A stretch of 64,000 bases of DNA from Alphaproteobacteria bacterium (GCA_965214705.1 CBDCCI010000002.1:2176001-2240000); one strand, 5' to 3'; numbered from the stretch's first letter, positions 8,877 through 40,363 are shown. Notes: generated by a model from the sequence alone, not told the origin. Numbers and translations: made by a program.

Positions 8877-9417
8877 GTACGGGTCGAGGGCGTCACGCGG
8901 CCTATGCTCCCGCTGTCGAGAGAAGGAGCGCCGCGAGAATGAGGCACACGCCCGTGAGCCAAGCCGCGAATACGGAATACGTCCACATCATCGAGGCGGC
9001 TCCTCACGGCAGAAGCAGATAATTGCCGTTGCAATCAGCCATTTGCTCCGCCTAAACGAGACGGGTACTCCGAACTCACTCATGGGCTTCTCACCTCACA
9101 ACCGGTGCCGTTCTCGAGAATCGAGACCGCGCGTCAGCATCGCAGTGTCAAAGTCGACGGAGACTGGGATCACTGGATAGAGAGAAAGTAGATATAAATT
9201 GGCAAGAAATGTACACAGAATCAATATACTTTGTTGATCTTGAGCTATATCCGTATTGACATATCTAACAACCTAATACTTTGTAATAACAAGATAAAAC
9301 ATATTAGTATATAAATTACATCTTAGAAACTGGCCCGACCAATGCGAAATTGATATGGAGTGGAAAGACCAATGCTCTCTTTCAAACAAGAGAGCATACC
9401 ATCATGGCATATCAACC

Positions 9418-9422
9418 ATGTT
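9418..9422 (+). repeat. Left copy of the 5-bp direct repeat ATGTT (probable TSD of the IS at 13360-15903)
   Basis: ATGTT abuts the 3' end of intron A1 here and recurs at 20483-20487 abutting the 3' end of intron A2. Confidence 0.75.
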
Positions 9423-9498
9423 ATCGCGGTAGGGAACCGGGTTGCCCCGGTCCCCCCGCACAGATCCGGACGGGCGCTGTTCGCATCCGGCTCCTCCC

Positions 9499-12400
9499 TC
9501 AGGTCCTGACGACAAGCCGCTGGTTCGGCCACGGATGACGGATGCTGGCCTTGGGCCAGTGGGCAGCAGTGAGGGGATTGATATCCTCCCACGCGGTGCG
9601 GTCCCGTTGGGACCTTCGCCGCAGGGCACGCATGAGCAGCCGTTTGCATTGGTGCACGAACCGCACCAGATAGCGGCCGCTCCCGGGTACGCCGTAGTAG
9701 TTGAGCCAGCCGTCGATGACCCTTCCCAGCCACTTCGCTGTCTCGTGCCGGTTGTCGTGCCAGCGCTTGCGCAGCCTTTCCGCGATCCCCCGCAGAGTGC
9801 GGTTGACCCGTTTCCGGGATGGCCTGCGGCCGACCCTGAACCGTCCCTTCCTCGACTGGTCGCAGAAGTGCGTCATGCCAAGGAAGTCGAACGTCTCCGG
9901 CTTGCCCTGCCCCCGTGTCCGGCGGTTCGCTTTCGCGTAGCGGCCGAATTCGATGAGCCGGGTCTTGCCCGGATGCAGTTCCAGTCCGTACTGGGCCAGC
10001 CTCTCGCCGAGGTCCCGGAGGAAACGCTTCGCGTCGCCCTCGTGCTGGAAGCCGCACACAAAATCATCGGCGTATCGCACGATGATTGTGTCGCCTCCTG
10101 CCGTCCGTTTGCGCCATGTGTTGTGGAACCAGTCGTCGAGCACGTAATGCAGGTAAACGTTGGCGAGGCAGGGTGAGATTATCCCACCCTGCGGAACGCC
10201 CCTGCCGGTGTCCGTCCAGTCGGTCCCTTCCATGACGCCGGCGTTCAGCCACTTGACGATCAGCCGCATGACCCGCGTGTCTCCGATGCGCCTTTCGAGC
10301 ATCCCGACCAGGTGGTCCCGCCCGAGATTGTCGAAGAACCCGCGGATGTCGGCGTCAACGACCCAGTTGACCTTCCGCCGTTCCATTCCAACCGCCACGG
10401 CGTCGAGCGCGTTATGCGTCCCCCGCCCCGGCCGGAAGCCGTAGCTGAAGCCGAGGAACTCCGTCTCGTAGATCGGCACCAGAATCGTATCCGTCACCGC
10501 CCGCTGGAGTATCTTGTCCTCCAGCGAGGCGATGCCGAGCGGTCGTTGTCCCCCGTCCTCTTTGGGTATGTAGACCCGCCGCGACGGCGGCGCCCGATAC
10601 GCCCCCCTGTGCACACGCCCGTGCAGGTCGACCAAGCGATCTTCCAGCCCGTCGGCGTATGCCTCCCACGTGACGCCGTCCACCCCCGCTGCCGCGTCCT
10701 TTCTCAGCGAATGGTACGCGTCGCGCAGGCAGTCAACCGTCACATGGTGGAGGAGCGCCACGAGACACTCATCCGGGTTCCTCTTTGCAGCCTGTCGTAT
10801 CCGGTCGGCCGCCTGTGACTCGCTTCCCCGCTTCTGCGCGCGGCGCGAGCTTTGGCCTTTCGGATTGCCCTTGGGTCCGCCCCTTCGCTCCCCCGGCTCC
10901 GCCGGCCCCGAGGGGCCGTTGTTCGCCGGCTTCATTGCTGTCGGGTCGGAGGAGGCGCCCCGCGAGGCTAGCCTCCGTCCGCCGCTCAAACGGCCCGTAC
11001 GGTTTTCCCGTAAGCCGCTTTCACAAAGGTGTCTCAACGAAGGTTCAAGGACGGAACCAGTGAGATCAGGCGAACAAGCCCGTATTCGTCGATCAGCTTG
11101 CGCTCCGGCAACTGTTTCCAGCCAGCGTTGCGCCAGCGCTTGCGACGATGCGACCAGAGCCGCCGCACGATCCAGCCGTCAAGCTGGTGGAAGAGCCCGC
11201 GGACGTGGGCCTTGCAATAGTATTGGCCCCATCCCCGAATGATCGGGTTGATCTCGTCAATCAGCTCCTGCGTGCTGACAGGAGCCTTGCGCCGGGTACG
11301 CTGGCGAATCTGGTCCTTGAAGTGCCGGATGGATTTCTCACGCGGAACCGCGTAGCGCGCTCCCCCGCGAACCCCGCTCTTGATCTTGGAGGACGACAGC
11401 CGGAGAGGCCGCTCGCCCTGCTTGATCTTGTAGCCGAGGAACTCAAACCCGTGCCTGACATGGACAATGCGGGTCTTCCCGGCGTTGAGGGACACACCCA
11501 GCTTTGCCAGAATCCGCCTGGCCGTCTCCAGTGCTGCGCGGGCTTCCCCGCGTGTGCGGCACGTGATCAGCCAATCATCGGCGTATCGCGTTAGTCGATA
11601 GCCGCGACGACGCATTTCCCAATCGAACGGGGTCAGCAAGATATTGCTGAGCAGCGGTGAAACGATGCCGCCCTGCGGAGTGCCCTGTTCGGTCGGCAGC
11701 CTCTTACCGTCGGCCACCACCCCGGCCGTGAGCATCTGCCTGAGCAGACCTAATACCCGGCCATCCGAGACTCGCTGGTTGACGAGTTCGAGGAGCTTTT
11801 CGTGGTCCACGGACCCGAAAAAGTCTTTCAAATCCGCATCGAGAACCCACTCGTTGCCCTCGTCCAGTTCCCTCCATATCTTGCGTAACGCTCCATGGGC
11901 AGACCTTCCTTGCCGGTACCCGTAGTTGGCATCGTCGAACACCGGCTCGAAGATCGGTTCCAGCCGGTTCAGCAGCGCCTGCTGGCACACCCGGTCGTAG
12001 ATTGTCGGGATGCCGAGCGGGCGGAACTTCCCCGGCTGGCCCGCCTTGGGGATCAGGCATTGGAGAACCGGCTGCGGGTGATACTCACCGTCCCGCAACT
12101 CCCGGTGCAGGCGATCGAGATTTGCATCCAGCGATGCCTCGAACGCCGCTAAATCCTCTCCGTCCACGCCACCGGCACCCCGGTTGCGCTTCACCTTTTC
12201 CCAGGCCACCTCAAGGTTCTTCCGCTTGTACACCTTGTCCACCAGTGAGTGGACCTTCCTGTCACCCGCCGGGTTGATCCAGTCGATGAGTCTCCTCGGG
12301 CCATGATGTCCGGGTCTTTCGCTCAAGGAACTTGTCCGCGTCATGGTCCTTACTCACTCATCGCTGTCTCTCGCCGACCACCTCTGCCAACCGACTTCCC

Positions 12401-13001
12401 CGGCCCACACGGCCGCCGCTCGCGCGGTCACCCGGCTTTCGCCGGGCTTCAGGTACTATTCGGTTGTCCGATTGCTCGCCGCGCATCCTTTCCCATTTCG
12501 CCTTTCGGCTTATAGGGTCCGTTATCCCGGTGCCACCCGGGAACGCGGCGAGCCCTCCTGGGGTCACGTCCAGATCTTCCGTACCGTGCCGCTCGCAAAC
12601 ACCTTGGTGCGACGGGTGGGTAAGAACGCCTTCGCCGCCATAGTGCCGGCTCGACCTTGCCCCGTCTTTGGCCGACCGATTCATCATGGGGTGGCCCCCT
12701 CGATTACGGCCCGGTACTTCTCCGCAAGCCCTTCAGATTCCACCTCGCGGTGGACACCCTGCCTTCCGGTTGTCTTTCGACAGTGGACCAACTTAGCTCC
12801 TCCCTTGGCTGTCTCCGCCGTTTCCGGCTTCGTGCCCGTTTAGAGTTTCGCTTATCGGCTCACTCCGGCCAGTGAGGAATTACCCCCACTTTTGGATATG
12901 GCGCCCCTTACCCGAGCGCCAGTGGGACTTGAACCCACCTGATCTGGGCGCTGCCCAGCACACACTATGGGCGAATCTGATTTCTTCGAACCGTACATCA
13001 T
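9499..13001 (-). CDS. Group II intron A reverse transcriptase/maturase, join(13001..12964,10939..9499), 492 aa after intron B splicing
   Basis: ALLHHVT, AAAGVDG, RPLGIASLEDK, PQGGIISPCLANVYLHY, RYADDF, FDFLGMTH. No C-terminal HNH endonuclease domain. Frame is restored when 10940-12963 is removed. Confidence 0.88.
10940..12963 (-). mobile_element. Group II intron B (2024 bp) nested inside intron A copy 1
   Basis: 5' GTGTG at 12963. Domain V GAAAGCGGCTTACGGGAAAACCGTACGGGCCGTTTG and 3' end CCGACCCGAC at 10940. Removing it rejoins CCCATAGT|AGCAATGAAG exactly as in copy 2. Confidence 0.93.
11034..12344 (-). CDS. Group II intron B reverse transcriptase/maturase (no endonuclease domain)
   Basis: HSLVDKVY, RGAGGVDG, RPLGIPTIYDR, GTPQGGIVSPLLSNI, RYADDW, FEFLGY, maturase X motif INPIIRGWGQYY. 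Confidence 0.93.
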   Translation of the reverse strand: MTRTSSLSERPGHHGPRRLIDWINPAGDRKVHSLVDKVYKRKNLEVAWEKVKRNRGAGGVDGEDLAAFEASLDANLDRLHRELRDGEYHPQPVLQCLIPKAGQPGKFRPLGIPTIYDRVCQQALLNRLEPIFEPVFDDANYGYRQGRSAHGALRKIWRELDEGNEWVLDADLKDFFGSVDHEKLLELVNQRVSDGRVLGLLRQMLTAGVVADGKRLPTEQGTPQGGIVSPLLSNILLTPFDWEMRRRGYRLTRYADDWLITCRTRGEARAALETARRILAKLGVSLNAGKTRIVHVRHGFEFLGYKIKQGERPLRLSSSKIKSGVRGGARYAVPREKSIRHFKDQIRQRTRRKAPVSTQELIDEINPIIRGWGQYYCKAHVRGLFHQLDGWIVRRLWSHRRKRWRNAGWKQLPERKLIDEYGLVRLISLVPSLNLR

Positions 13002-13359
13002 TGGGTTGCGGTATAGCTCCTTTCCTTAGCGGCCCCGCACGACCGCGGGGCAGTTCGAAGACCTCCCAGGTCCCGGTGGACTGCTTCGGCACGTGCCATG
13101 GTTCTTAGACCCCGCAGAGCCCCTGCTCGCCTCACCAAAACGGCTCACAGGGTGTTGCCTTCGGCTAATCTGACAGCCTCGGCACCCCGGTTGAATCAGG
13201 TTTCGTGGCTCAATAGCCCGGCCCGTGCCTGCCGCTTCCCAACGCTTCGCCTGCCGCCTCGCGACGACCGGCGCATGGGTCGCGGAGAAAGTGGTCGGTT
13301 CACCTCTCTTTCTGCCGGGACTTCCACCCGGCGACATTCCACCAGTTTGCCTGGCGCAC

Positions 13360-15749
13360 CAGACTTCCTGACCTCTGCTGATTTGGGGTGATGCGGTTTG
13401 CGTGGATTCCGGGGCTGCGGCGACCTCGTAGACCATGCGCAGTTCGGTCCCGGGGAAGACGGTTTCGGTGGCGTTGAGCTCGCTCAGGAGGGCATCGATC
13501 TGGCGGTCGCAGGCGTCATTTGCGAGGCCGAGAATATGGACCCGGAGAACGCCGTTGGCGGGGTCCGGCAGGATGTCGGCATCGGCGGCCAAGAGAGCCT
13601 GAAGCAGTTTCCGGGGATGAGGCTTCTTGCCTTGTCCCTGCATGACGGGGAGCATCATGCGGGTTTCGGCGCGGTAGGCGATCATGCGGATGACGTCGAG
13701 GAGGAGACGGTCGCGTGAGGGCAGGGCATCGAGCTGTCGGTCTTCGTCGAGGTCGCCGGCCCGACAGTGCTTCGGCACGTTCCTGCGGCTGGCCTTGGCG
13801 ATCTCGAGGGCGCCCTCGAGGTCCCTGACCTCGCTCCTGAGCTGCGCCGTCGGCCTCTTTTTCCTGGCCGCGCCGGCGATCCGGTTGCGCAGGCGGGCGA
13901 GCCGGCGTTCGGCGCTGCGGATTGCCTTGTCGTAGGCCCGCCGGAGCGGGTTGACGACCATGGTGTCGGGAGCGAGCGGCTCGAGTTGGTGGGTCGGCAG
14001 GGCGTCGAGGTTGAACTCGTCGCGCATGTACTTGAAGAAGTTTTCCTGCGACCAGCGCGAGACCATGGCGCCTGCGGCCTCGCCCATCGGTTTGTGCGGA
14101 TCGGTGACGATGAAGGGGATCTGGCGGCCGTTGTCCAGCAGGCGGCGGATCTGGCGCACCCTGAAGCCGTTCGGCAACGTCACCGGCTTTTCGGCCAGCC
14201 GCAAGGCGGCGGTGCCGCTCGTCGCCGGTCCGTGAATAGGAACGGTCGTCGCGCTGAAGTCCTCGACCGGCCAATCCTCGCCGCTGAAGTTCTTGTGCCA
14301 GGTCAGGCAAGCGATGCCGCGCCTCGCCAGCCGGCGGAACAGCTCCGGGCTCCAGCCCTCGCGGTCGAAGACCAGGGTGAGCGCGGGGTGGCCGGGCGCC
14401 TGTGCGGTCAGGTCCGGCGCCTGAGCATCGACGATCCCGAGCTCCTGCAGCGCCGCCACCACGTCGGCTTCGATGGCGGCGACCATCTTCGGATCCAGCG
14501 TCTTGTGCAGACAGAGCAGGGGTTTGCCGCCCAGGGCATTGATCCAGTAGCTGGCGCTGGCCGGCAGGCACAGCTTCTGGCGCGAGACGAAGTGTTTCGG
14601 CAGGCGTCCCTTGCGGCCGGCGTAGACCTTGACGTGCCCGTCGACGGCCAGCGTCGCCCAGAGCTCCGGCTCGTCGGCCTGCCAGCGCCTGGCAAGGGCG
14701 AGCTGCCAGGCCCGCACGCCGGCCTCGTCGTTGGCGATCAGCGCGATCTTGCGCCGCAGCGTCTTGACCTCGGGGCAGCGGTCGAGGCCGAGAATGGCGC
14801 CCCATTCGCCCGGCGGCCGGTAGCGCAGGCTCTCGGGATTGCGCACCCGCGCCAAGCTCATGAAGGCCAGGAAGAGCAGGATCGTGTTCAGGCCGTAATA
14901 GCCCTTCGGCAGCGGTGGCAGGACCTCGGTCGCGGCCAGCAGGCCTTCCTTGAGCAGAGCCGGCAGGGCGGTGAGAACGCCACCTGAGCGCACCCCGCGG
15001 GCGGCGCTGCCGAACTGCGGATCGACCGGCCCCGCCTGCCCGCAGCTGGCCAGCACCCGGCCCGAAACATCGCAGGTCGCGCGCCCCATCGGCGCCTGCC
15101 GGTCGCGCCGGTCGCGTGCGGTGCGATCGGTCTGCGGCCCGGCGTCGATGGGGCCTGGTGAGCGGCTCTGCGCCGGTTCCGTCAGGGGCGGCGCTTCCGG
15201 TCGTACCGTCTCGGACCCGGGGGCGCCGGCACCGTCATCGTCGACGCGCCGCTCAACCGCATCGGGCGGTGGACCCTGCGCCGAACCCCCGGGCTCCTGC
15301 GCCGCCTTGCCGATCAGCCCCTGCCGGCGCCACTTGTTGACCGACGCCACCGACACGCCCAGAACCCGGGCCACCGCAGAGCCGCTCAGGCCCGCTTCCA
15401 GCAACGCTGTCGCCTTCTCGGCCAGTTCCGGTGTGAACACCGACGGCCCGCGACCGCGCCGGGGTTTCAGAAACGCCGCTTCACCCTCGGCCAGGTAGCG
15501 CCGCCGCGCGCGCAGCACGGTCGCGCGCGAGACACCGAACGCGTCGACCAGATCCCGTTGCGCGATGTCGCTGACCACCGCGAGCCGGCCAATCCGCATG
15601 AGCATGGCGGCACGGTCATCGGCGGGGTGGCTGTCGAACGGAACGAGATTGGAGAAGTAGGTGAAGGTGTCGTCGGAGATCAGGACGGCGAAGCAGCTGT
15701 TGCCGATCGGAACCGCTTCTGGGGGGCAAATCGGGAGGGTGATGGGCAT
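13360..15749 (-). CDS. Putative DDE transposase, 796 aa; stop codon TG|A split by intron A1 (the A is at 9422)
   Basis: Two HTH-like segments (GVSRATVLRARR; SAVARVLGVSVASVNKW). Acidic motifs VDGH, FDREG, RWSQENFFKY. ORF ends ...RGQEV inside the IR. Confidence 0.82.
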
Positions 15750-15903
15750 GGCTCAGGCCGCCGAATCTGCGTCACCATAAAATAGCAGATTCCGCCGTGC
15801 CGATCAACGAAAACCTGGCCTGAAACGGGAAGAAAGCGGGGAATTTCAACGAGTTCCCGACGCACCGATCCGCATCGCCAAGGCCATGAGGTCAGGAAGT
15901 CTG
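13360..15903 (-). mobile_element. Insertion sequence (2544 bp), large DDE transposase, family not assigned
   Basis: Perfect 16-bp terminal IRs CAGACTTCCTGACCTC (13360-13375; 15888-15903). Single transposase ORF. ATGTT repeats lie outside the flanking introns. Confidence 0.85.
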
Positions 15904-17602
15904 GTGCGCCAGGCAAACTGGTGGAATGTCGCCGGGTGGAAGTCCCGGCAGAAAGAGAGGTGAACCGACCACTTTCTCCGCGACCCATGCGCCGGTCGTC
16001 GCGAGGCGGCAGGCGAAGCGTTGGGAAGCGGCAGGCACGGGCCGGGCTATTGAGCCACGAAACCTGATTCAACCGGGGTGCCGAGGCTGTCAGATTAGCC
16101 GAAGGCAACACCCTGTGAGCCGTTTTGGTGAGGCGAGCAGGGGCTCTGCGGGGTCTAAGAACCATGGCACGTGCCGAAGCAGTCCACCGGGACCTGGGAG
16201 GTCTTCGAACTGCCCCGCGGTCGTGCGGGGCCGCTAAGGAAAGGAGCTATACCGCAACCCAATGATGTACGGTTCGAAGAAATCAGATTCGCCCATAGTA
16301 GCAATGAAGCCGGCGAACAACGGCCCCTCGGGGCCGGCGGAGCCGGGGGAGCGAAGGGGCGGACCCAAGGGCAATCCGAAAGGCCAAAGCTCGCGCCGCG
16401 CGCAGAAGCGGGGAAGCGAGTCACAGGCGGCCGACCGGATACGACAGGCTGCAAAGAGGAACCCGGATGAGTGTCTCGTGGCGCTCCTCCACCATGTGAC
16501 GGTTGACTGCCTGCGCGACGCGTACCATTCGCTGAGAAAGGACGCGGCAGCGGGGGTGGACGGCGTCACGTGGGAGGCATACGCCGACGGGCTGGAAGAT
16601 CGCTTGGTCGACCTGCACGGGCGTGTGCACAGGGGGGCGTATCGGGCGCCGCCGTCGCGGCGGGTCTACATACCCAAAGAGGACGGGGGACAACGACCGC
16701 TCGGCATCGCCTCGCTGGAGGACAAGATACTCCAGCGGGCGGTGACGGATACGATTCTGGTGCCGATCTACGAGACGGAGTTCCTCGGCTTCAGCTACGG
16801 CTTCCGGCCGGGGCGGGGGACGCATAACGCGCTCGACGCCGTGGCGGTTGGAATGGAACGGCGGAAGGTCAACTGGGTCGTTGACGCCGACATCCGCGGG
16901 TTCTTCGACAATCTCGGGCGGGACCACCTGGTCGGGATGCTCGAAAGGCGCATCGGAGACACGCGGGTCATGCGGCTGATCGTCAAGTGGCTGAACGCCG
17001 GCGTCATGGAAGGGACCGACTGGACGGACACCGGCAGGGGCGTTCCGCAGGGTGGGATAATCTCACCCTGCCTCGCCAACGTTTACCTGCATTACGTGCT
17101 CGACGACTGGTTCCACAACACATGGCGCAAACGGACGGCAGGAGGCGACACAATCATCGTGCGATACGCCGATGATTTTGTGTGCGGCTTCCAGCACGAG
17201 GGCGACGCGAAGCGTTTCCTCCGGGACCTCGGCGAGAGGCTGGCCCAGTACGGACTGGAACTGCATCCGGGCAAGACCCGGCTCATCGAATTCGGCCGCT
17301 ACGCGAAAGCGAACCGCCGGACACGGGGGCAGGGCAAGCCGGAGACGTTCGACTTCCTTGGCATGACGCACTTGAACGAAGCCGCTACGCGGAGTTAGCG
17401 GCGTAGAGTTCATTCATTTCCGAGGCGTCGCGGGTGCCGTTTGTTCTGTGCGTTCGCTTCCCGGTTGCGTCAGTGGCGCTCCGCCCGTCGGGTGGCGGAT
17501 CCCCAGCAGCCTCCCGATCACCAGTGGTTAGCATCGACCCCTGCGACGGACCGTCGCCGGATCGGTCCGGCGGCGCGCCGTCGCGATCCAGGGAGATCGA
17601 TA

Positions 17603-18481
17603 ATGACCGGGACCGCGTGCGACACGAACACCGTCACCCCTCTTCGCCAGCGCATGGAGGAGCAGCTCCGCATCGCCAATCTGGCCGCGAGCACGTCCAA
17701 GGCCTACATCTGCGAGATCAAGAACCTGGCCAGGTACTACGACGCCTCGCCGGACGAGCTCGACGCCGAGCAGGTGCGCCAGTGGTACCTGGGGCGGATC
17801 GACAAGGGGCTCAGTCCGGGCACGACCAACGTCTCCTTCGCCGCGCTGAACTTCCTCTACATCGACACACTCGGCTGGCCTGACCATGTCGCCGGCCTGC
17901 GCTCCCGCAAGAAGCCCGGCAAGCTGCCGCGCTACATGTCGGAGCAGGAGGTCGAGCACCTCATCCTTGCGACACCCGACCTCCGCCACCGTGCTGCCAT
18001 TGTCACCGGCTATGGCGGCGGGCTCCGCATCTCCGAGACCTTGGCCATCAAGGTCGGCGACATCCTGTCGGAGAAGAAGCTGCTGCACATCCCCTCCGGC
18101 AAAGGCGGCACCGAGAGAATGGCACCGTTGCCGGACATCGTCATCCACTACTTGCGCGTCTACTACAGGAACATCTGGCCGCGTCCGACGAGCTGGCTCT
18201 TCTACGGCGTCTCGCTCGACAGGCCCATCGCAACGGAGACCTTGCAGGCCGCCTTCAGGAGGGCGCGCGACATTGCCGAGCTCGACCGCAGCTACACCTT
18301 CCATTGCCTGCGCCATTCGGCGGCGACCCATCTCCTCGAGCGCGGCGGCGATATCGAGGTGATCCGGGACATGCTCGGCCATCGAAGCGCGAACACGACC
18401 CGTCACTACGCCCGCGTCACCGGCAAGATGTTCGAGGGCCTCGACCACCCGATCTCAGGCTTCGCAGCGTTGCGCAACTGA
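17603..18481 (+). CDS. Tyrosine recombinase/integrase
   Basis: Catalytic set GLRISE (R), GKGG (K), HCLRH (HxxR), LGH, TRHY (Y). Confidence 0.92.
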   Translation: MTGTACDTNTVTPLRQRMEEQLRIANLAASTSKAYICEIKNLARYYDASPDELDAEQVRQWYLGRIDKGLSPGTTNVSFAALNFLYIDTLGWPDHVAGLRSRKKPGKLPRYMSEQEVEHLILATPDLRHRAAIVTGYGGGLRISETLAIKVGDILSEKKLLHIPSGKGGTERMAPLPDIVIHYLRVYYRNIWPRPTSWLFYGVSLDRPIATETLQAAFRRARDIAELDRSYTFHCLRHSAATHLLERGGDIEVIRDMLGHRSANTTRHYARVTGKMFEGLDHPISGFAALRN

Positions 18482-18487
18482 CGGCGC

Positions 18488-19729
18488 GTGGAGGCCGAAC
18501 GCGCGGGCGTGGCGGAGATCTTCCGCCGCGCCGGCGCCGCTTTCCGTGAGCGCCACAAAGGGCGCATCGACGCCGCCCGGCTCAAGGTCATGGGCGCCAT
18601 CGAGGCGTGCCGCACCGCCGTGCTCGGCGGCCACATGTACGCCTGCGAGGGCTGCGGGCGCGAGCATCCGCTCTTCAACTCCTGCCGCAACCGCCACTGC
18701 CCCACCTGCCAGGGTCTCGCCGCCAACCTCTGGAGCGAGGAGCGCGCCGGGGACATCCTGCCGGTGCCCTACTTCCATGTGGTCTTCACCCTGCCCAAGG
18801 AGGTTGCCGCCATTGCCTTCTGCAACCGCAGGGTGGTGTTCGACATCCTCTTCCGGGCCGTCGCCGAGACCCTGCGCACCATCGCCGCCGATCCCCGCCA
18901 CGGCGGCATGCGCATCGGCGGCACCGCGGTCCTCCATACCTGGGATCAGAAGCTCCGCTTCCACCCGCACCTGCACGTGGTCGTGCCCAACGCGGGCTTC
19001 GACGTAGACAGTGGCGAGTGGAAGACGGGGAGCACCACCTTCCTCGCCCCCGTCAAGGTCCTCGGCAGCCTGTTCCGCCGCCTCTTCCTCGAGGAGCTCG
19101 CCCGCGCCCACGGCCGGGGGGACCTGGAGTTCCACGGCACCGTCGCCCACCTCGCCAATCCCGGCGAGTTCCACGCCACGCTTGCCGCCGCCCGGGCCAG
19201 GGACTGGGTGGTCTACGCCAAGCGGCCCTTCCGCGGGCCTGAGCAGGTCTTCCGGTACCTCTCGCACTACACGCACAGGATCGCCATCTCCGACAGCCGC
19301 ATCGTCTCCTTCGACGGCGAGACGGTCTCCTTCCGCCACCGAAAGCCCAAGGCGCCGGGGCAGAGAAAGCCGCGCTACGGCATCGCCACCGTGAGCGCCG
19401 ACGAGTTCATCCGCCGCTTCCTGAGGCACGTCCTGCCGGACGGCATGCACCGCATTCGCTACTTCGGCATCCTCGCCAACGGCTGCCGCGCCAGCACGCT
19501 GGAGAGAGCACGCCAGGCTCTCGGCGCCCTCGGCTGCGCCGCCCCCGAGGGAAGCGTGGACGGCGCTCAGGCCGAGCCCGACGAAGAGCCCGAGATCGGC
19601 ACCGCGCCCGTGGCCTGCCCCCACTGCGGCGGCGTCATGCGCCTCGTCCGCGAAATCCGCCGCCGCCATGAGCCCCGCTCGACGCGCGGCCCGCCGGCGC
19701 TGCCGCCGACCCACAGGGGGAAACCGTGA
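18488..19729 (+). CDS. IS91-family transposase (Y2 HUH) with Zn-binding N-terminal domain
   Basis: CEGC...SCRNRHCPTCQ, YFHVVFTLP, HPHLH (HUH), YLSHY (YxxxY), HRIRYFG. Confidence 0.92.
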   Translation: MEAERAGVAEIFRRAGAAFRERHKGRIDAARLKVMGAIEACRTAVLGGHMYACEGCGREHPLFNSCRNRHCPTCQGLAANLWSEERAGDILPVPYFHVVFTLPKEVAAIAFCNRRVVFDILFRAVAETLRTIAADPRHGGMRIGGTAVLHTWDQKLRFHPHLHVVVPNAGFDVDSGEWKTGSTTFLAPVKVLGSLFRRLFLEELARAHGRGDLEFHGTVAHLANPGEFHATLAAARARDWVVYAKRPFRGPEQVFRYLSHYTHRIAISDSRIVSFDGETVSFRHRKPKAPGQRKPRYGIATVSADEFIRRFLRHVLPDGMHRIRYFGILANGCRASTLERARQALGALGCAAPEGSVDGAQAEPDEEPEIGTAPVACPHCGGVMRLVREIRRRHEPRSTRGPPALPPTHRGKP

Positions 19730-20482
19730 GACGGCCGCTCGCTTCGGCCCCGCGCAACGGCGCCAAAGCGCCGACGCACGACCGAACCTGTCTCCGCTTG
19801 AGCCGGGCTGACAGCCCTCGGCTCACACCCCGCTCAGTCCTCGCAGCGTGCGCCCGCATGCCTGCCGAAAGACCGGCGCGAGCGTCGATTTTATGCGCAA
19901 CTCTGCTGCCGGTGGATGCCGCCTGACGCTGACATCAGCGCACTTTCCACATAGCTCAACTTCGCCTCTCGTGGCCCGCGGCTTCGTTCAAAAGGGTTGG
20001 GCAGGCTCTCGAGAGAGAGCCTGCCCAACCCTTAACCTTCTGCGACCAGTCGAGGAAGGGACGGTTCAGGGTCGGCCGCAGGCCATCCCGGAAACGGGTC
20101 AACCGCACTCTGCGGGGGATCGCGGAAAGGCTGCGCAAGCGCTGGCACGACAACCGGCACGAGACAGCGAAGTGGCTGGGAAGGGTCATCGACGGCTGGC
20201 TCAACTACTACGGCGTACCCGGGAGCGGCCGCTATCTGGTGCGGTTCGTGCACCAATGCAAACGGCTGCTCATGCGTGCCCTGCGGCGAAGGTCCCAACG
20301 GGACCGCACCGCGTGGGAGGATATCAATCCCCTCACTGCTGCCCACTGGCCCAAGGCCAGCATCCGTCATCCGTGGCCGAACCAGCGGCTTGTCGTCAGG
20401 ACCTGAGGGAGGAGCCGGATGCGAACAGCGCCCGTCCGGATCTGTGCGGGGGGACCGGGGCAACCCGGTTCCCTACCGCGAT

Positions 20483-20487
20483 ATGTT
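20483..20487 (+). repeat. Right copy of the ATGTT direct repeat
   Basis: Immediately follows the 3' end of intron A2; matches 9418-9422. Confidence 0.75.
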
Positions 20488-20673
20488 ACAGCGTAATCTC
20501 TTGGGAACACCATGAGATTTCATGGGAATTTCATCACCTAATAGTCTTGATTCTAGAGGGAAAACCGGCCCGACCTTCCATGCCACGTGTGCGACTCGGG
20601 GCGCGGTGGAGACGGGGCAACTGGTCGACTACCATTGGGGTCGAACGGGAAAGCCTCGGGGAGGGCCGGTGCC

Positions 20674-23745: not shown

Positions 23746-25905
23746 CCCAAGTTGGCACTTTTTCCGACCAGCCGAGCCTGTTCGAGCCAGTTTTGCGGCG
23801 CTGAACCACTAGATGTTGGGGTTGGAGGACACCTGAGACCCACATTTGCCATTCGTGGTCCTGGAAGCCAATTGTGGGGCCAGGACTTTGGAGTTGAGTC
23901 GATATCCCTCTTGCCAGATGCCGCGAACGCCGTGTATGCGAAACAGGCATCGCAGAAACGGCGCCGCCATGTACATCAAGGCAACCAGGACACACACCGA
24001 CAAGGCCGGCCAGCCGGTCCGAAGCCATCGCCTCGTGCTCGCCCAGCGCGTCGGCGACAAGGTGCGCCACAGGACGCTGCTCAATCTCGGCACCGACTAT
24101 CCGGTGCCGCGCGAGAAGTGGAAGGCCGTCACCGAACTCGCCGAGGCGCTGCTTCACGGCAAGCCGCCGCTGTTCGAGGGCGAGGCGGATGTGCGGGCCG
24201 CAGCCGAGGACATCGTCGCCAAGCTCAGGGCCAGGGGGTTCCGCGTCGAGGCGATGCAGGAAGAGGCGCGCAAGCCCGACATCGCCACCGTCGACCTCGA
24301 TACCCTGGAGCACGAGAACCCGCGCACGGTCGGCTGCGAGCGCCTGTGCCTCAAGGCCCTCGACGCCCTCGGCTTCGCCGAAATCCTCCACGGCCTCGAC
24401 ATCAAGGGCCGCGACGGGCGCATCGCCAGCGCGCTGATCGTCGCCAGGATGGTCCATCCCGCCAGCGAGCGTGATACCAGCCGCTGGCTCCGCCACGACA
24501 GCGCGGCCGCCGAGCTCCTGGGCCTGGAGGGCGACCGCAAGGCGCTGCGGCGCAAGACGCTCTACCGCATCGGCGACCTGCTCTGGCGCCACCGCGCCGC
24601 CATCCAGCGGGAGCTGTTCAACCGTGAGCGCGCACTGCTCGACCTGCCCGAGACGATCGCCTTCTACGATCTCACCAACGTCCACTACCACGGCCACACG
24701 GGCGGCGAGCTTCCCAGGTTCGGGCGCTCCAAGCAGAAGCGCGACGACTGTCCCCTCATCACGCTGGCGCTGGCGCTCGACGGCGCGGGCTTCCCGCGCA
24801 GTTGCGAGATCCTGCCGGGCAACGTGAGCGAGCCGGGCACGCTGCACGAGGCGCTGGCGCGGCTCGAGGCGGTGTGCGGCGGCACGGCGCCGAAGCCCAC
24901 GGTGGTCATGGACGCGGGCATCGCCACCGAGAAAAACATCGCGTGGCTGGGCGAGCAGGGCTACGACTGGATCGCGGTCAGCCGCGGTGCCAGGCCTGCG
25001 CCGCCCGAGGGCGGACCCGAGGCCCTGCTGATCACCAGCGCGCGCCACGAGGTGCGGGCCTGGCGGCTTGCCAGCGAGGACGGCGAGGCGCGGCTCTACG
25101 TCGTCAGCGAGGGCAAGAAGAAGGCCGAGAACGCGATCATCGGCCTGAGGCGGAACCGCTTCGAGGCGGCGCTGGAAAGGCTCCACGGCGGCCTTGCGGT
25201 CAAGGGCCGCCTCAAGCGCTACGACAAGGTGCTGGAGAGCATAGGCCGCCTCAAGCAGCGCTTCTCCGCCGTCGCCAGGCACTACGAGATCACGGTCGAG
25301 AGGGCGAAAACCGGCCCCAATGCCACCGCCGTGCGCTTCAAGCGCAGGCCGCGATACGACGAGGCCGATGAGGGCGCCGGTGCCTATGTGCTGCGCACCA
25401 GCCACGTCGACTGGGACATCGAGACGGTCCTGCGGACGTACTGGCGGATCACGGATATCGAGGCGACATTCCGGAGCCTGAAATCCGAGCTCGGCCTTCG
25501 CCCGATCTGGCACCAGCTCGACCGGCGCATCGCGGCCCACCTGCTGATCGCCGTGCTGGCCTACCACGCCGTGCATCTGATCCGTACCCGGCTGGCCGCG
25601 CGCGGCATCCACAAGTGCTGGGCGTCGATCCGCGAGAGCATGCGGACCTGGGTGCGGATCACCACGCGCCTGCGCCAGACCGACGGCACCTTGATCGTCA
25701 ACCGCCAGGACACGCGCCCGGCCGCCGAGGTTGCCGCAATCTCCTCGGCGGCGGGCGTGGACCCCGCCATCCACCGCACGAGGACCCGTCTGATGAGCTG
25801 ACAGAATCTCACAAAATGTGGGGCCATGTTGGAATCGACCGAGAAAAATATCGCGTTGAATCAAACCAATAGGGAACACAGGCAGCGGAAAAGTGCCAAC
25901 TTGGG
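23746..25905 (+). mobile_element. IS1634-family element, copy 1 (2160 bp)
   Basis: IRs CCCAAGTTGGCACTTTT / AAAAGTGCCAACTTGGG; 4-bp TSD CAAG (23742-23745; 25906-25909). Confidence 0.92.
23969..25801 (+). CDS. IS1634-family transposase
   Basis: RTLLNLG, FYDLTN, FGRSKQKRDD, VMDAGI, IEATFRSLKSELGLRPIWH. Confidence 0.92.
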   Translation: MYIKATRTHTDKAGQPVRSHRLVLAQRVGDKVRHRTLLNLGTDYPVPREKWKAVTELAEALLHGKPPLFEGEADVRAAAEDIVAKLRARGFRVEAMQEEARKPDIATVDLDTLEHENPRTVGCERLCLKALDALGFAEILHGLDIKGRDGRIASALIVARMVHPASERDTSRWLRHDSAAAELLGLEGDRKALRRKTLYRIGDLLWRHRAAIQRELFNRERALLDLPETIAFYDLTNVHYHGHTGGELPRFGRSKQKRDDCPLITLALALDGAGFPRSCEILPGNVSEPGTLHEALARLEAVCGGTAPKPTVVMDAGIATEKNIAWLGEQGYDWIAVSRGARPAPPEGGPEALLITSARHEVRAWRLASEDGEARLYVVSEGKKKAENAIIGLRRNRFEAALERLHGGLAVKGRLKRYDKVLESIGRLKQRFSAVARHYEITVERAKTGPNATAVRFKRRPRYDEADEGAGAYVLRTSHVDWDIETVLRTYWRITDIEATFRSLKSELGLRPIWHQLDRRIAAHLLIAVLAYHAVHLIRTRLAARGIHKCWASIRESMRTWVRITTRLRQTDGTLIVNRQDTRPAAEVAAISSAAGVDPAIHRTRTRLMS

Positions 25906-26637
25906 CAAGGTGATCTGGACCCCGGAGTTCCGCCTCCGCTCGACTGCTGACACCGAAGGCGATGCCAAACTCGCCGCCAAGGTTCGCGACTATCAAGCAA
26001 ACCTCGACGAGACCCTGGACGTGGTGATCGGCGAGACCGCGGTGGAGCTCAGCACCCGCGGCTTCCAGCACGGATCGGCCGAGACCGCCTTCGGCAATCT
26101 GCTGGCAGACGCCATGCGCGAGGCGACCGGCGCCGACATCGCGCTCACCAACGGTGGCGGCATTCGCGGCGACACGGTCTATCCGCCCGGCACCAGACTC
26201 ACCCGCAAGATGGTGCTGACCGAGCTTCCCTTCGGCAACAAGACCGTGGTGCTTCGCCTGACCGGCGCCCAGGTGCAGGAGGCACTGGAGAACGGCGTAA
26301 GCCGGGCCGAGAACCCCTCGGGCCGGTTCCCGCAGGTCTCTGGCTTTGCCTTCACCTTCGATGCGCGCAGGCCACCGGGCGAACGGGTGACGAGCGTCAC
26401 GGTGGGCGGTGTGCCGCTGGAGGACGGCAAGACCTACACGCTCGCCACCAACAGCTTCCTCGCGAACGGCGGCGACGACTATCGCGTGTTCAAGGTCGGC
26501 GAGGTGTTGATCGATTCTGCGTCCGGCGAGCTCATGGCGGGGCAGCTCATCGACCACATCATCGCGGCCGGCAGTGTCGCGCCGAAGATCGAAGGGCGGA
26601 TTACCCGCGAGGACTGACGCGCATCGCGATTGCACGA

Positions 26638-28797
26638 CCCAAGTTGGCACTTTTTCCGGTTGCTCAATGCCGGTCTGCCCATATTTTGCGGACCGAAGTA
26701 CCACATATTGGGGTAGCTCCGAGATGATGCCACTATATGTGTAATTGAGGCGCTGGAAGCGCGTTGTAGTGCCAGGAGTTGTTAGGTATTGACGATTTTC
26801 CCTTGACCCCAGACCCCAAGCCGACAAATCTTGGCCCCTCGCAACAATCTCGCGACGGGCGACATGTTCATCAGGGCAACCAAGACCCACACCACCGACG
26901 GCAAGCCCGTCCGAAGCCATCGCCTCGTGCTCTCCCAGCGCATCGGCGACAAGGTCAGGCAGCGCACGCTCCTCAACCTCGGCACCGACTATCCGGTGCC
27001 GAAGGAGAAATGGCGCGAAGTGGCCGAACTCGCCGAGGCGCTGCTGCACGGCCGCCCGCCGCTGCTCCAAGCCGTCCCGGACGTGCAGGCCGCAGCCGAG
27101 GACATCGTCGCCAAGCTCAGGGCCAGGGGGTTCCGCGTCGAGGCGATGCAGGAAGAGGCGCGCAAGCCCGAGATCGCCACCGTCGACCTCGATACCCTGG
27201 AGCACGAGAACCCGCGCACCGTCGGCTGCGAGCGCCTGTGCCTCAAGGCCCTCGACGACCTTGGCTTCGCCGACATCCTCCACGGCCTTGGCATCAAAGG
27301 CCGAGACGGGCGCATCGCGAGCGCGCTGATCGTCGCCAGGATGGTCCATCCCGCCAGCGAGCGTGATACCAGCCGCTGGCTCCGCCACGACAGCGCGGCC
27401 GCCGAGCTCCTGGGCCTGGAGGGCGACCGCAAGGCGCTGCGGCGCAAGACGCTCTACCGCATCGGCGACCTGCTCTGGCGCCACCGGGCCGCCATCCAGA
27501 GGGAACTGTTCAACCGTGAGCGCGCGCTGCTCGACCTGCCCGAGACGATCGCCTTCTACGATCTCACCAACGTCCACTACCACGGCCACACGGGCGGCGA
27601 GCTTCCCAGGTTCGGGCGCTCCAAGCAGAAGCGCGACGACTGTCCCCTCATCACGCTGGCGCTGGCGCTCGACGGCGCGGGCTTCCCGCGCAGTTGCGAG
27701 ATCCTGCCGGGCAACGTGAGCGAGCCGGGCACGCTGCACGAGGCGCTGGCGCGGCTCGAGGCGGTGTGCGGCGGCACGGCGGCGAAGCCCACGGTGGTCA
27801 TGGATGCGGGCATCGCCACCGAGGAAAACATCGTCTGGCTGGGCGAGCAGGGCTACGACTGGATCGCGGTCAGCCGCGGTGCCAGGCCTGCGCCGCCCGA
27901 GGGCGGACCCGAGGCCCTGCTGATCACCAGCGCGCGCCACGAGGTGCGGGCCTGGCGGCTTGCCAGCGAGGACGGCGAGGCGCGGCTCTACGTCGTCAGC
28001 GAGGGCAAGAAGAAGGCCGAGAACGCGATCATCGGCCTGAGGCGGAACCGCTTCGAGGCGGCGCTGGAAAGGCTCCACAGCGGCCTCCCGGTCAAGCGCC
28101 GCCTCAAGCGCTACGACAAGGTGCTGGAGAGCATAGGCCGCCTCAAGCAGCGCTTCTCCGCCGTCGCCAGGCACTACGAGATCACGGTCGAGAAGGCGAA
28201 AACCGGCCCCAATGCCACCGCCGTGCGCTTCAAGCGCAGGCCGCGATACGACGAGGCCGATGAGGGCGCCGGCGCCTATGTGCTGCGCACCAGCCACGTC
28301 GACTGGGATATCGAGACGGTCCTGCGGACGTACTGGCGGATCACGGATATCGAGGCGACATTCAAGAGCCTAAAATCCGAGCTCGGCCTTCGCCCGATCT
28401 GGCACCAGCTCGACCGGCGCATCGCGGCCCACCTGCTGATCGCCGTGCTGGCCTACCACGCCGTGCATCTGATCCGTACCCGGCTGGCCGCGCGCGGCAT
28501 CCACAAGTGCTGGGCATCGATCCGCGAGAGCATGCGGACCTGGGTGCGGATCACCACGCGCCTGCGCCAGACCGACGGCACGTTGATCGTCAATCGACAG
28601 GACACGCGCCCGGCCGCTGAGGTAGCCGCAATCTCCTCGGCGGCGGGCGTGGAACCCGCCATCCACCGCACGAGGACCCGCCTGCCGAACTGACAGAATC
28701 CAACAAAATGTAGTGCCATGTTGGAATCGGCCGAGAGAAATATCGCGTTACATCAACATGATAAAGGACATGGGTAGGACAAAAGTGCCAACCTGGG
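26638..28797 (+). mobile_element. IS1634-family element, copy 2 (2160 bp)
   Basis: Same IRs; TSD ACGA (26634-26637; 28798-28801). Intergenic between the nucleotidase and nucleosidase genes. Confidence 0.92.
26864..28693 (+). CDS. IS1634-family transposase
   Basis: Near-identical core to 23969-25801; protein identical to 38430-40259. Confidence 0.92.
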   Translation: MFIRATKTHTTDGKPVRSHRLVLSQRIGDKVRQRTLLNLGTDYPVPKEKWREVAELAEALLHGRPPLLQAVPDVQAAAEDIVAKLRARGFRVEAMQEEARKPEIATVDLDTLEHENPRTVGCERLCLKALDDLGFADILHGLGIKGRDGRIASALIVARMVHPASERDTSRWLRHDSAAAELLGLEGDRKALRRKTLYRIGDLLWRHRAAIQRELFNRERALLDLPETIAFYDLTNVHYHGHTGGELPRFGRSKQKRDDCPLITLALALDGAGFPRSCEILPGNVSEPGTLHEALARLEAVCGGTAAKPTVVMDAGIATEENIVWLGEQGYDWIAVSRGARPAPPEGGPEALLITSARHEVRAWRLASEDGEARLYVVSEGKKKAENAIIGLRRNRFEAALERLHSGLPVKRRLKRYDKVLESIGRLKQRFSAVARHYEITVEKAKTGPNATAVRFKRRPRYDEADEGAGAYVLRTSHVDWDIETVLRTYWRITDIEATFKSLKSELGLRPIWHQLDRRIAAHLLIAVLAYHAVHLIRTRLAARGIHKCWASIRESMRTWVRITTRLRQTDGTLIVNRQDTRPAAEVAAISSAAGVEPAIHRTRTRLPN

Positions 28798-38082: not shown

Positions 38083-38203
38083 TTAGCGACAAGTCCGATG
38101 ATTGAGGGCCAACTCACCGGCAGGGTTCTCTCGGTGCTGACGCGGTGGTATGCTTGCGTAGCATAGACTAGCCCGACCTATTCATGGAGAGCCTTGCACT
38201 TGA

Positions 38204-40363
38204 CCCAAGTTGGCACTTTTTCCGGTTGCTCAATGCCGGTCTGCCCATATTTTGCGGACCGAAGTACCACATATTGGGGTAGCTCCGAGATGATGCCACT
38301 ATATGTGTAATTGAGGCGCTGGAAGCGCGTTGTAGTGCCAGGAGTTGTTAGGTATTGACGATTTTCCCTTGACCCCAGACCCCAAGCCGACAAATCTTGG
38401 CCCCTCGCAACAATCTCGCGACGGGCGACATGTTCATCAGGGCAACCAAGACCCACACCACCGACGGCAAGCCCGTCCGAAGCCATCGCCTCGTGCTCTC
38501 CCAGCGCATCGGCGACAAGGTCAGGCAGCGCACGCTCCTCAACCTCGGCACCGACTATCCGGTGCCGAAGGAGAAATGGCGCGAAGTGGCCGAACTCGCC
38601 GAGGCGCTGCTGCACGGCCGCCCGCCGCTGCTCCAAGCCGTCCCGGACGTGCAGGCCGCAGCCGAGGACATCGTCGCCAAGCTCAGGGCCAGGGGGTTCC
38701 GCGTCGAGGCGATGCAGGAAGAGGCGCGCAAGCCCGAGATCGCCACCGTCGACCTCGATACCCTGGAGCACGAGAACCCGCGCACCGTCGGCTGCGAGCG
38801 CCTGTGCCTCAAGGCCCTCGACGACCTTGGCTTCGCCGACATCCTCCACGGCCTTGGCATCAAAGGCCGAGACGGGCGCATCGCGAGCGCGCTGATCGTC
38901 GCCAGGATGGTCCATCCCGCCAGCGAGCGTGATACCAGCCGCTGGCTCCGCCACGACAGCGCGGCCGCCGAGCTCCTGGGCCTGGAGGGCGACCGCAAGG
39001 CGCTGCGGCGCAAGACGCTCTACCGCATCGGCGACCTGCTCTGGCGCCACCGGGCCGCCATCCAGAGGGAACTGTTCAACCGTGAGCGCGCGCTGCTCGA
39101 CCTGCCCGAGACGATCGCCTTCTACGATCTCACCAACGTCCACTACCACGGCCACACGGGCGGCGAGCTTCCCAGGTTCGGGCGCTCCAAGCAGAAGCGC
39201 GACGACTGTCCCCTCATCACGCTGGCGCTGGCGCTCGACGGCGCGGGCTTCCCGCGCAGTTGCGAGATCCTGCCGGGCAACGTGAGCGAGCCGGGCACGC
39301 TGCACGAGGCGCTGGCGCGGCTCGAGGCGGTGTGCGGCGGCACGGCGGCGAAGCCCACGGTGGTCATGGATGCGGGCATCGCCACCGAGGAAAACATCGT
39401 CTGGCTGGGCGAGCAGGGCTACGACTGGATCGCGGTCAGCCGCGGTGCCAGGCCTGCGCCGCCCGAGGGCGGACCCGAGGCCCTGCTGATCACCAGCGCG
39501 CGCCACGAGGTGCGGGCCTGGCGGCTTGCCAGCGAGGACGGCGAGGCGCGGCTCTACGTCGTCAGCGAGGGCAAGAAGAAGGCCGAGAACGCGATCATCG
39601 GCCTGAGGCGGAACCGCTTCGAGGCGGCGCTGGAAAGGCTCCACAGCGGCCTCCCGGTCAAGCGCCGCCTCAAGCGCTACGACAAGGTGCTGGAGAGCAT
39701 AGGCCGCCTCAAGCAGCGCTTCTCCGCCGTCGCCAGGCACTACGAGATCACGGTCGAGAAGGCGAAAACCGGCCCCAATGCCACCGCCGTGCGCTTCAAG
39801 CGCAGGCCGCGATACGACGAGGCCGATGAGGGCGCCGGCGCCTATGTGCTGCGCACCAGCCACGTCGACTGGGATATCGAGACGGTCCTGCGGACGTACT
39901 GGCGGATCACGGATATCGAGGCGACATTCAAGAGCCTAAAATCCGAGCTCGGCCTTCGCCCGATCTGGCACCAGCTCGACCGGCGCATCGCGGCCCACCT
40001 GCTGATCGCCGTGCTGGCCTACCACGCCGTGCATCTGATCCGTACCCGGCTGGCCGCGCGCGGCATCCACAAGTGCTGGGCATCGATCCGCGAGAGCATG
40101 CGGACCTGGGTGCGGATCACCACGCGCCTGCGCCAGACCGACGGCACGTTGATCGTCAATCGACAGGACACGCGCCCGGCCGCTGAGGTAGCCGCAATCT
40201 CCTCGGCGGCGGGCGTGGAACCCGCCATCCACCGCACGAGGACCCGCCTGCCGAACTGACAGAATCCAACAAAATGTAGTGCCATGTTGGAATCGGCCGA
40301 GAGAAATATCGCGTTACATCAACATGATAAAGGACATGGGTAGGACAAAAGTGCCAACCTGGG
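38204..40363 (+). mobile_element. IS1634-family element, copy 3 (2160 bp)
   Basis: Appears identical to copy 2; TSD TTGA (38200-38203; 40364-40367). Confidence 0.92.
38430..40259 (+). CDS. IS1634-family transposase
   Basis: Protein identical to 26864-28693. Confidence 0.92.
   Translation: MFIRATKTHTTDGKPVRSHRLVLSQRIGDKVRQRTLLNLGTDYPVPKEKWREVAELAEALLHGRPPLLQAVPDVQAAAEDIVAKLRARGFRVEAMQEEARKPEIATVDLDTLEHENPRTVGCERLCLKALDDLGFADILHGLGIKGRDGRIASALIVARMVHPASERDTSRWLRHDSAAAELLGLEGDRKALRRKTLYRIGDLLWRHRAAIQRELFNRERALLDLPETIAFYDLTNVHYHGHTGGELPRFGRSKQKRDDCPLITLALALDGAGFPRSCEILPGNVSEPGTLHEALARLEAVCGGTAAKPTVVMDAGIATEENIVWLGEQGYDWIAVSRGARPAPPEGGPEALLITSARHEVRAWRLASEDGEARLYVVSEGKKKAENAIIGLRRNRFEAALERLHSGLPVKRRLKRYDKVLESIGRLKQRFSAVARHYEITVEKAKTGPNATAVRFKRRPRYDEADEGAGAYVLRTSHVDWDIETVLRTYWRITDIEATFKSLKSELGLRPIWHQLDRRIAAHLLIAVLAYHAVHLIRTRLAARGIHKCWASIRESMRTWVRITTRLRQTDGTLIVNRQDTRPAAEVAAISSAAGVEPAIHRTRTRLPN

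Follow-up and report, generated by a model that had tools for sequence, protein, structure and literature searches.

A group II intron at both ends of a Transposase_29-family insertion sequence, with one copy lying within the transposase stop codon

The insertion sequence and its introns

We examined a 64,000-nt stretch of DNA from an Alphaproteobacteria bacterium (GCA_965214705.1, CBDCCI010000002.1:2176001-2240000), referred to below as the window, that harbors an insertion sequence (IS) with a group II intron at each of its ends (Table 1). One of these introns, A1, follows the transposase gene so closely that it separates the second from the third base of the stop codon, while the other copy, A2, points outward from the opposite end. 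Each copy carries a further element: a second group II intron, B, is nested in A1, and an IS91-family element is inserted in A2.

The two ends of the IS are formed by a 16-bp repeat, GAGGTCAGGAAGTCTG, of which the window contains exactly two copies, in inverted orientation (13375..13360 and 15888..15903), and there is one copy of the IS within the 64 kb. According to Pfam, its transposase matches Transposase_29 (PF21804) over residues 231-776 with an E-value of 9e-106 and has helix-turn-helix (HTH) domains at the N-terminus; the NCBIfam match is limited to the HTH part. Full-length homologues of the protein have 776-805 amino acids (aa), and relatives of the IS in other genomes are 2416-2588 bp long, with ends identical to those of the window IS. 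The element combines a transposase gene, terminal inverted repeats and a target duplication, and its relatives are present in multiple genomic copies, all of which mark it as an insertion sequence; by its Transposase_29 family it would be of the DDE type. A literature search yielded no helpful lead for naming the IS family. A scan of positions 13000-16300 for promoters and terminators was uninformative, with no promoter-like sites and with terminator-like sites at chance level.

The composite of IS and introns is flanked on both sides by the 5-mer ATGTT. Once the A and the T are given (see below), the chance of such a match is about 1 in 64, so that the match adds little. The surroundings (9200-9600 and 20483-20580) form an A+T-rich patch with a G+C content of 0.49, compared with 0.60-0.74 in other 400-bp windows, and a perfect hairpin is located just to the left of the insertion site of the IS plus introns.

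Intron A1 begins with GTGCG at position 13359, directly after the repeat, and ends with ...CTACCGCGAT at position 9423, where GAT closes the intron. It matches the Rfam family RF02005 (group-II-D1D4-6) with 154 bits (E 2e-44, 13324..13100), and both copies of intron A lie above the gathering score of that family, which is 49. For domains V and VI the alignment with RF00029 (34.2 bits) stays below the gathering score; it displays the AGC triad and the bulge of domain V and the bulged A of domain VI, and the intron ends follow the pattern 5' GUGYG and 3' AY. The reverse transcriptase (RT)/maturase encoded by intron A consists of RVT_1 and GIIM domains. Pfam detects no endonuclease domain in it, and about 30 residues follow GIIM. 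Judged by its position between the D1-D4 and D5-D6 matches, the RT gene presumably resides in domain IV. On these features we class intron A as a mobile bacterial group II intron.

The two copies of intron A show 100% identity in three blocks (412, 1074 and 447 nt) that extend to the 16-nt repeat on one side and to the first base downstream of the intron on the other; the two inserts are the sole differences between them. At each end of the single IS of the window, the intron occupies the same position and points outward, A2 being antisense to the transposase gene and located at the end that holds no stop codon. Identical copies of this kind often break or misjoin assemblies, and one might suspect that the inverted introns with their nested inserts were created by misjoined repeats. 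However, the junctions are exact, with GTGCG following the repeat at both ends and ATGTT standing outside both introns, and the insertions of intron B and of the IS91-type element are precise, with intact open reading frames (ORFs). We regard an assembly artefact as extremely unlikely.

A first-pass annotation of this sequence had proposed that A1 is itself interrupted by intron B. This holds true: the 2024-nt insert has intron ends and an RT gene of its own and is absent from A2, and on both flanks of it A1 and A2 are 100% identical. Its match to the Rfam family RF02001 is weak (21 bits, E 0.25). Intron B ends 4 nt before the ATG (10935) of the intron A RT gene and is located downstream of the Rfam D1-D4 match, outside the matched D1-D4 and D5-D6 ribozyme parts of A1, and thus presumably within domain IV. 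With one intron nested precisely in another, we classify A1 and B together as a group II twintron, in which B would plausibly be spliced first and A second. The IS91-type element in A2 comprises a tyrosine recombinase gene and a gene for a zinc-binding/Y2 transposase and disrupts the A2 RT gene. The trinucleotide CTT is found on each side of this element, the left junction reading CTTG.

Table 1. Features of the composite locus, with positions counted from the first base of the window (CDS, coding sequence; EBS, exon-binding site; IBS, intron-binding site)
Feature	Position	Strand	Remarks
Insertion sequence, 2544 bp	13360..15903	minus	perfect 16-bp terminal inverted repeats at both ends
Inverted repeat at the 3' end of the gene	13360..13375	minus	encodes (R)GQEV and the TG of the stop codon; 5' exon of intron A1 (IBS2, IBS1)
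Other inverted repeat	15888..15903	plus	5' exon of intron A2
Transposase CDS, 796 codons	13362..15749	minus	C-terminus ...RGQEV; Pfam PF21804 Transposase_29 and homologues
Read-through extension, TGG and 110 codons, then TAA (13028-13026)	13026..13361	minus	overlaps ribozyme domain I; contains the Rfam match 13324..13100
Group II intron A1, 3937 nt (1913 nt without intron B)	9423..13359	minus	in transposase orientation; RF02005, RF00029; GTGCG...GAT
Candidate EBS1 of intron A, CAGAUU	13167..13172	minus	pairs with exon -6..-1 (AGUCUG); in a hairpin loop, aligned to the EBS1 loop region in Rfam
Candidate EBS2 of intron A, CCUGAUU (tentative)	13194..13200	minus	pairs with exon -14..-8 (GGUCAGG), two G-U pairs included
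Intron A RT/maturase gene, 478 aa, intact	9499..10935	minus	TIGR04416 340 bits (cut-off 300); Pfam RVT_1 and GIIM
Domains V-VI and 3' splice site of A1	9423..9495	minus	RF00029 34.2 bits (gathering score 40), E 4e-4
Group II intron A2	15904..20482	plus	points away from the transposase gene, on its 5' side; RF02005 154 bits (15939..16163), RF00029 (20410..20482)
Group II intron B, 2024 nt, inside A1	10940..12963	minus	GTGTG...GAC; absent from A2
Candidate EBS1 of intron B, ACUAUGG	12644..12638	minus	hairpin loop; pairs with -7..-1 of intron A
Intron B RT/maturase gene, 436 aa	11034..12344	minus	TIGR04416 384 bits, E 8e-115; RVT_1 and GIIM
IS91-family element, 2663 nt, in the A2 RT gene	17374..20036	plus	Phage_integrase, Y2_Tnp, Zn_Tnp_IS91 (Pfam); absent from A1
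5-bp duplication, left copy, ATGTT	9418..9422	plus	base 9422 is the A of TGA on the minus strand
5-bp duplication, right copy, ATGTT	20483..20487	plus	directly after intron A2

The split stop codon and the target of intron A

The minus-strand ORF from 15749 to 13026 comprises 907 codons, in which ...SPQISRGQEV is followed by W-C-A-R... The V codon of the transposase ends at 13362, and the TG at 13361-13360 represents the last two bases of the repeat and of the IS. With intron A1 taken out, the exons join as GAA GTC TG|A, the A coming from position 9422, and the 796-codon ORF is closed by TGA; the predicted ligated-exon junction is GAAGTCTG|AACATGG. The first base of the intron is a G, which turns TGA into TGG (Trp) as long as the RNA is unspliced and leaves the frame open for another 111 codons (907 minus 796). 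Both the division of the stop codon between RGQEV-TG and the A at 9422 and the reading of unspliced RNA into 111 extra codons (907 vs 796 aa) had been pointed out in the first-pass annotation, and translation of the ORF confirmed them at the positions given here. Unspliced RNA would give a transposase with a 111-residue tail derived from ribozyme domain I, and spliced RNA would restore the protein of 796 aa.

The length of the open frame is only mildly unusual, being equaled by 86 of 5000 shuffled versions of the intron's first 396 bases. In three related introns at other sites (P0122-P0124), the frame through ribozyme domain I is likewise open, which can probably be put down to G+C richness and shared ancestry.

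The position of intron A is in line with the base pairing that its candidate exon-binding sites would permit. These could pair with the last 14 bases of the repeat, and the U that precedes candidate EBS1 might pair with the invariant A at position +1. Based on these pairings, the target of intron A would essentially be the inverted repeat and the next base, and it is for this reason that we would expect the intron at both ends of the IS. Since a copy is also found at the other repeat, antisense to the gene, the site appears to be set by the repeat sequence and not by the stop codon; the stop codon was hit because the ORF of this IS runs to the last base of the element. On this evidence, the insertion site is set by the target of the intron and is not a matter of chance.

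Related insertion sequences and the C-terminus of the transposase

A scan of one genome per species yielded 68 loci with related IS copies, the metagenome-assembled genomes being labeled as Thalassobaculaceae, Alphaproteobacteria, Spirochaetia and Rhodobacterales. Among the 18 closest transposases (74-96% identity), 15 end in RGQ[EKD][VLI] (RGQEV, RGQKV, RGQDV, RGQEL, RGQEI); each of the remaining three is either truncated or five residues shorter at the C-terminus. The 68 loci contain 127 distinct intron-free IS ends. In 126 of them ...GTCTG is followed by an A, in one (L046) by a C, and the fifth flanking base is a T in all 127. The first-pass annotation had proposed to check whether intron-free homologues end in GQEV*; because the close homologues and the intron-free ends agree in this respect in the numbers just given, we take GQEV* to be the native end, and the TGA at the junction is effectively constant across the related IS copies.

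A perfect 5-bp duplication, always of the form A-NNN-T, flanks 30 of the 59 non-duplicate complete IS copies. The left and right flanks of the remaining 29 do not match, although each of them still reads A-NNN-T except in L046, and this suggests frequent recombination between copies in IS-rich genomes. One locus (L009, 5847-10873) contains two IS copies head to tail with only the 5-mer AGACT between them; to the left of the first copy stands AGTCT, the reverse complement of that 5-mer.

It had initially been proposed that the IS borrows the last base of its stop codon from the target. The A-NNN-T pattern and the 30 duplications fit this proposal, but a 17-bp repeat combined with a 3-bp duplication fits equally well, so that the base could also belong to the element. 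The latter model would have consequences of its own for the effect of intron A. If the true ends were T-CAG...CTG-A, the intron would detach the terminal base from the IS, cutting would fail, and splicing would bring no repair, the element being disabled at the level of the DNA. Indeed, the A that follows CTG and the T that precedes CAG vary no more than the bases of the IS itself (126 of 127 ends), and the two duplication models predict identical sequences. However, invariance is just as strict at the outer positions (A at -5 on the left, T at +5 on the right; 127 of 127), and a single rule, namely an ANNNT target with a 5-bp duplication, covers all four positions more simply. We consider such a disabling of the IS ends rather unlikely.

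The C-terminus itself is variable among more distant relatives. Those with 57% identity share the repeat but have a TGA at its inner edge (...PDSG*), 15 nt before the end of the IS, and carry no RGQEV tail; among the matches listed, SPDSG forms the C-terminal end in 82 of 120 homologues. The RGQEV tail is also absent from a clade with 77% identity, where a TAG stop lies 6 nt before the repeat. Since these relatives lack the tail, the exact C-terminus is not conserved across the family. The last five residues of the window transposase are a mere translation of the repeat, and the Pfam domain ends earlier, at residue 776. The RGQEV tail is probably dispensable, and the exact C-terminus probably matters little.

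These observations bear on a further claim of the first-pass annotation, according to which splicing would couple transposition to intron activity. In this scenario the 907-aa form would be inactive or altered, the native protein would arise only after splicing of B and then of A, and the mobility of the IS would depend on the introns. Several features could be cited in its favor: the stop codon is lost in unspliced RNA (TGG), A1 is in sense orientation and directly continuous with the ORF, and B separates the start codon of the intron A RT from its upstream sequence. Moreover, for both RmInt2 (PMC4615759) and RmInt1 (PMC3035460) the authors proposed that IS mobility would be controlled through splicing, and the RmInt1 report also proposed that introns of this kind hinder the spread of the IS (PMC3035460). 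On the other hand, the second copy of intron A occupies the other repeat without any coding effect, so that no selection on the stop codon is needed to explain the site. The C-terminal tail varies in the family and lies beyond the Pfam domain, and the arrangement does not recur at the 127 IS ends in the 68 related loci or in proteins of 498-1588 aa. If intron A resembled RmInt1, for which 0.07% ligated exons were measured (PMC3035460), it would be a block and not a tunable gate. With A2 antisense at the other repeat, the site following the repeat and the tail being variable, the proposed coupling found no support, and we regard a splicing gate as improbable. Another reading would have intron A as a dedicated hyperparasite of the IS family, with every IS end serving as a homing site and two-step splicing of the twintron gating the native transposase, thereby throttling its host; we regard this reading as improbable as well.

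We think it likely that the locus is a set of nested selfish elements in which the stop codon came to be split incidentally, as the intron homed to the repeat of the IS. The IS of the Transposase_29 family would have landed in an A-NNN-T target, here ATGTT. Intron A, which has no endonuclease domain, would then have retrohomed into both ends of the IS, between ...GTCTG and A. Later, intron B would have entered A1, and the IS91-type element would have entered A2. In the clade to which this IS belongs, the ORF runs through the repeat and TG|A is the stop, so that copy A1 would come to lie between the second and third base of the stop codon. We infer the retrohoming mechanism, the order of events and splicing itself from what can be read directly in the DNA, that is, the anatomy of the locus, the identity of the copies, the conserved stop and the A-NNN-T rule.

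Several points weigh against this account of homing. Candidate EBS2 is tentative, and many other complementarities of 5-7 nt exist. The specialization of intron A on this IS rests on two insertions in one element, and an intron is present at none of the 127 IS ends in the 68 related loci. The read-through tail was found in no protein of 498-1588 aa from a large protein set, and four short proteins that match the tail proved to come from related introns preceded by other exon sequences. Finally, the 111-codon frame is somewhat longer than expected and is also open in related introns, and a function for it is conceivable.

Further instances and known systems

A blastn search with parts of the intron against the 68 related loci resulted in a single match, a 71%-identical intron with a different exon in L003. 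When 10 of the 68 loci were searched with Rfam, introns were detected only in L003 and L005, neither of them at an IS end. The relative of intron A in L003 (1800-10545, minus strand) is split over about 8 kb and has an IS copy inside. Here, judging from this layout, the IS is inserted into the intron, which is the opposite of the arrangement in the window. Related introns of the same Rfam family in L003 (~10541) and L070 (~3026) seem to begin with GAGCG, not with GUGCG. Against plasmids, the transposase gave no match in tblastn, and the 5' part of intron A gave one weak partial match. The nearest plasmid relatives of the intron A RT (L069, L070) display 50-57% identity and belong to the same Rfam family, and their exons are unrelated. 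Elsewhere in the window there is a further repeated element, with two copies (26636-28700 and 38202-40260) with 100% identity across 300 nt or more and a 620-aa ORF in each; a third copy (24007-24306) is 88% identical.

A non-exhaustive keyword search of the open-access literature found no description of a transposase stop codon that is split by an intron at the junction of IS and target. Introns that home to IS inverted repeats and introns placed after the second base of a stop codon have both been published already, and the locus fits these known kinds.

The closest parallel in terms of site is RmInt2 of Sinorhizobium meliloti GR4. All of its copies reside in the inverted repeats of ISRm17, with two sites per IS on opposite strands, and its target is defined by the IBS positions -14 to +1, with a U-A pair at +1 (PMC4615759). 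Like RmInt2, intron A is a group II intron without an endonuclease domain that is sited in IS inverted repeats, with two opposite-strand sites per element. A feature of the present case is that the insertion site directly follows the terminal base of the IS and falls on the stop codon of the transposase. RmInt2 belongs to class D (IIB3); intron A matches the Rfam family RF02005. The recurrent occupation of many IS copies that is typical of RmInt2 was not found for intron A (0 of 127 ends in the 68 related loci). RmInt1 is likewise a group II intron located in an IS and in sense orientation to the transposase gene; it is described as lying inside ISRm2011-2 and is not placed at an IS end or a stop codon (PMC3035460).

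The division of the stop codon after its second base is a feature shared with the groEL-type IIB1 introns Avi.groEL and EcKTE56.groEL, which are located between stop-codon bases 2 and 3 (PMC12584367). The first base of those introns is a G, which changes UAA into UAG and keeps the stop; in contrast, intron A turns UGA into UGG, and the stop is lost. The groEL introns further possess a 5' subdomain Ia of 300-700 nt, their RT includes an endonuclease domain, and their hosts are housekeeping genes (PMC12584367). In intron A, the D1 match begins 35 nt downstream of the 5' splice site, leaving no large subdomain Ia, there is no endonuclease domain, and the host gene is not a housekeeping gene; intron A is not a member of the groEL clade.

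Nesting of one group II intron in another is known from a bacterium, Trichodesmium, whose twintron is reported to splice sequentially (PMC4649490). What sets the present case apart is the place of the inner intron, immediately before the outer RT's start codon, and the host site, which is a transposase stop codon; the twintron described here is predicted from its sequence. Flanking DNA that determines the C-terminus of a transposase has been described as well. In IS1239 of Streptococcus pyogenes the transposase ORF runs out of the element, and the C-termini vary with the flank (PMC13630536). The IS family in the window differs from this case, as the invariant A of its ANNNT target always yields the same stop.

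As a side result, our comparison indicates that this IS family always inserts into A-NNN-T and that the stop codon spans the junction of IS and target in those clades whose reading frame extends across the repeat. The elements are neatly nested, and the present evidence leaves the understanding of insertion sequences and of group II introns unchanged. The locus provides a clean natural case of multi-layer nesting, with an IS, an intron at each of its ends, a second intron and an IS91-type element, and it suggests that a target preference for the end of an IS can incidentally rewrite the end of a transposase gene. If splicing does limit the transposase, the locus would be a further case for the proposal made for RmInt1 and RmInt2 that group II introns restrain insertion sequences.

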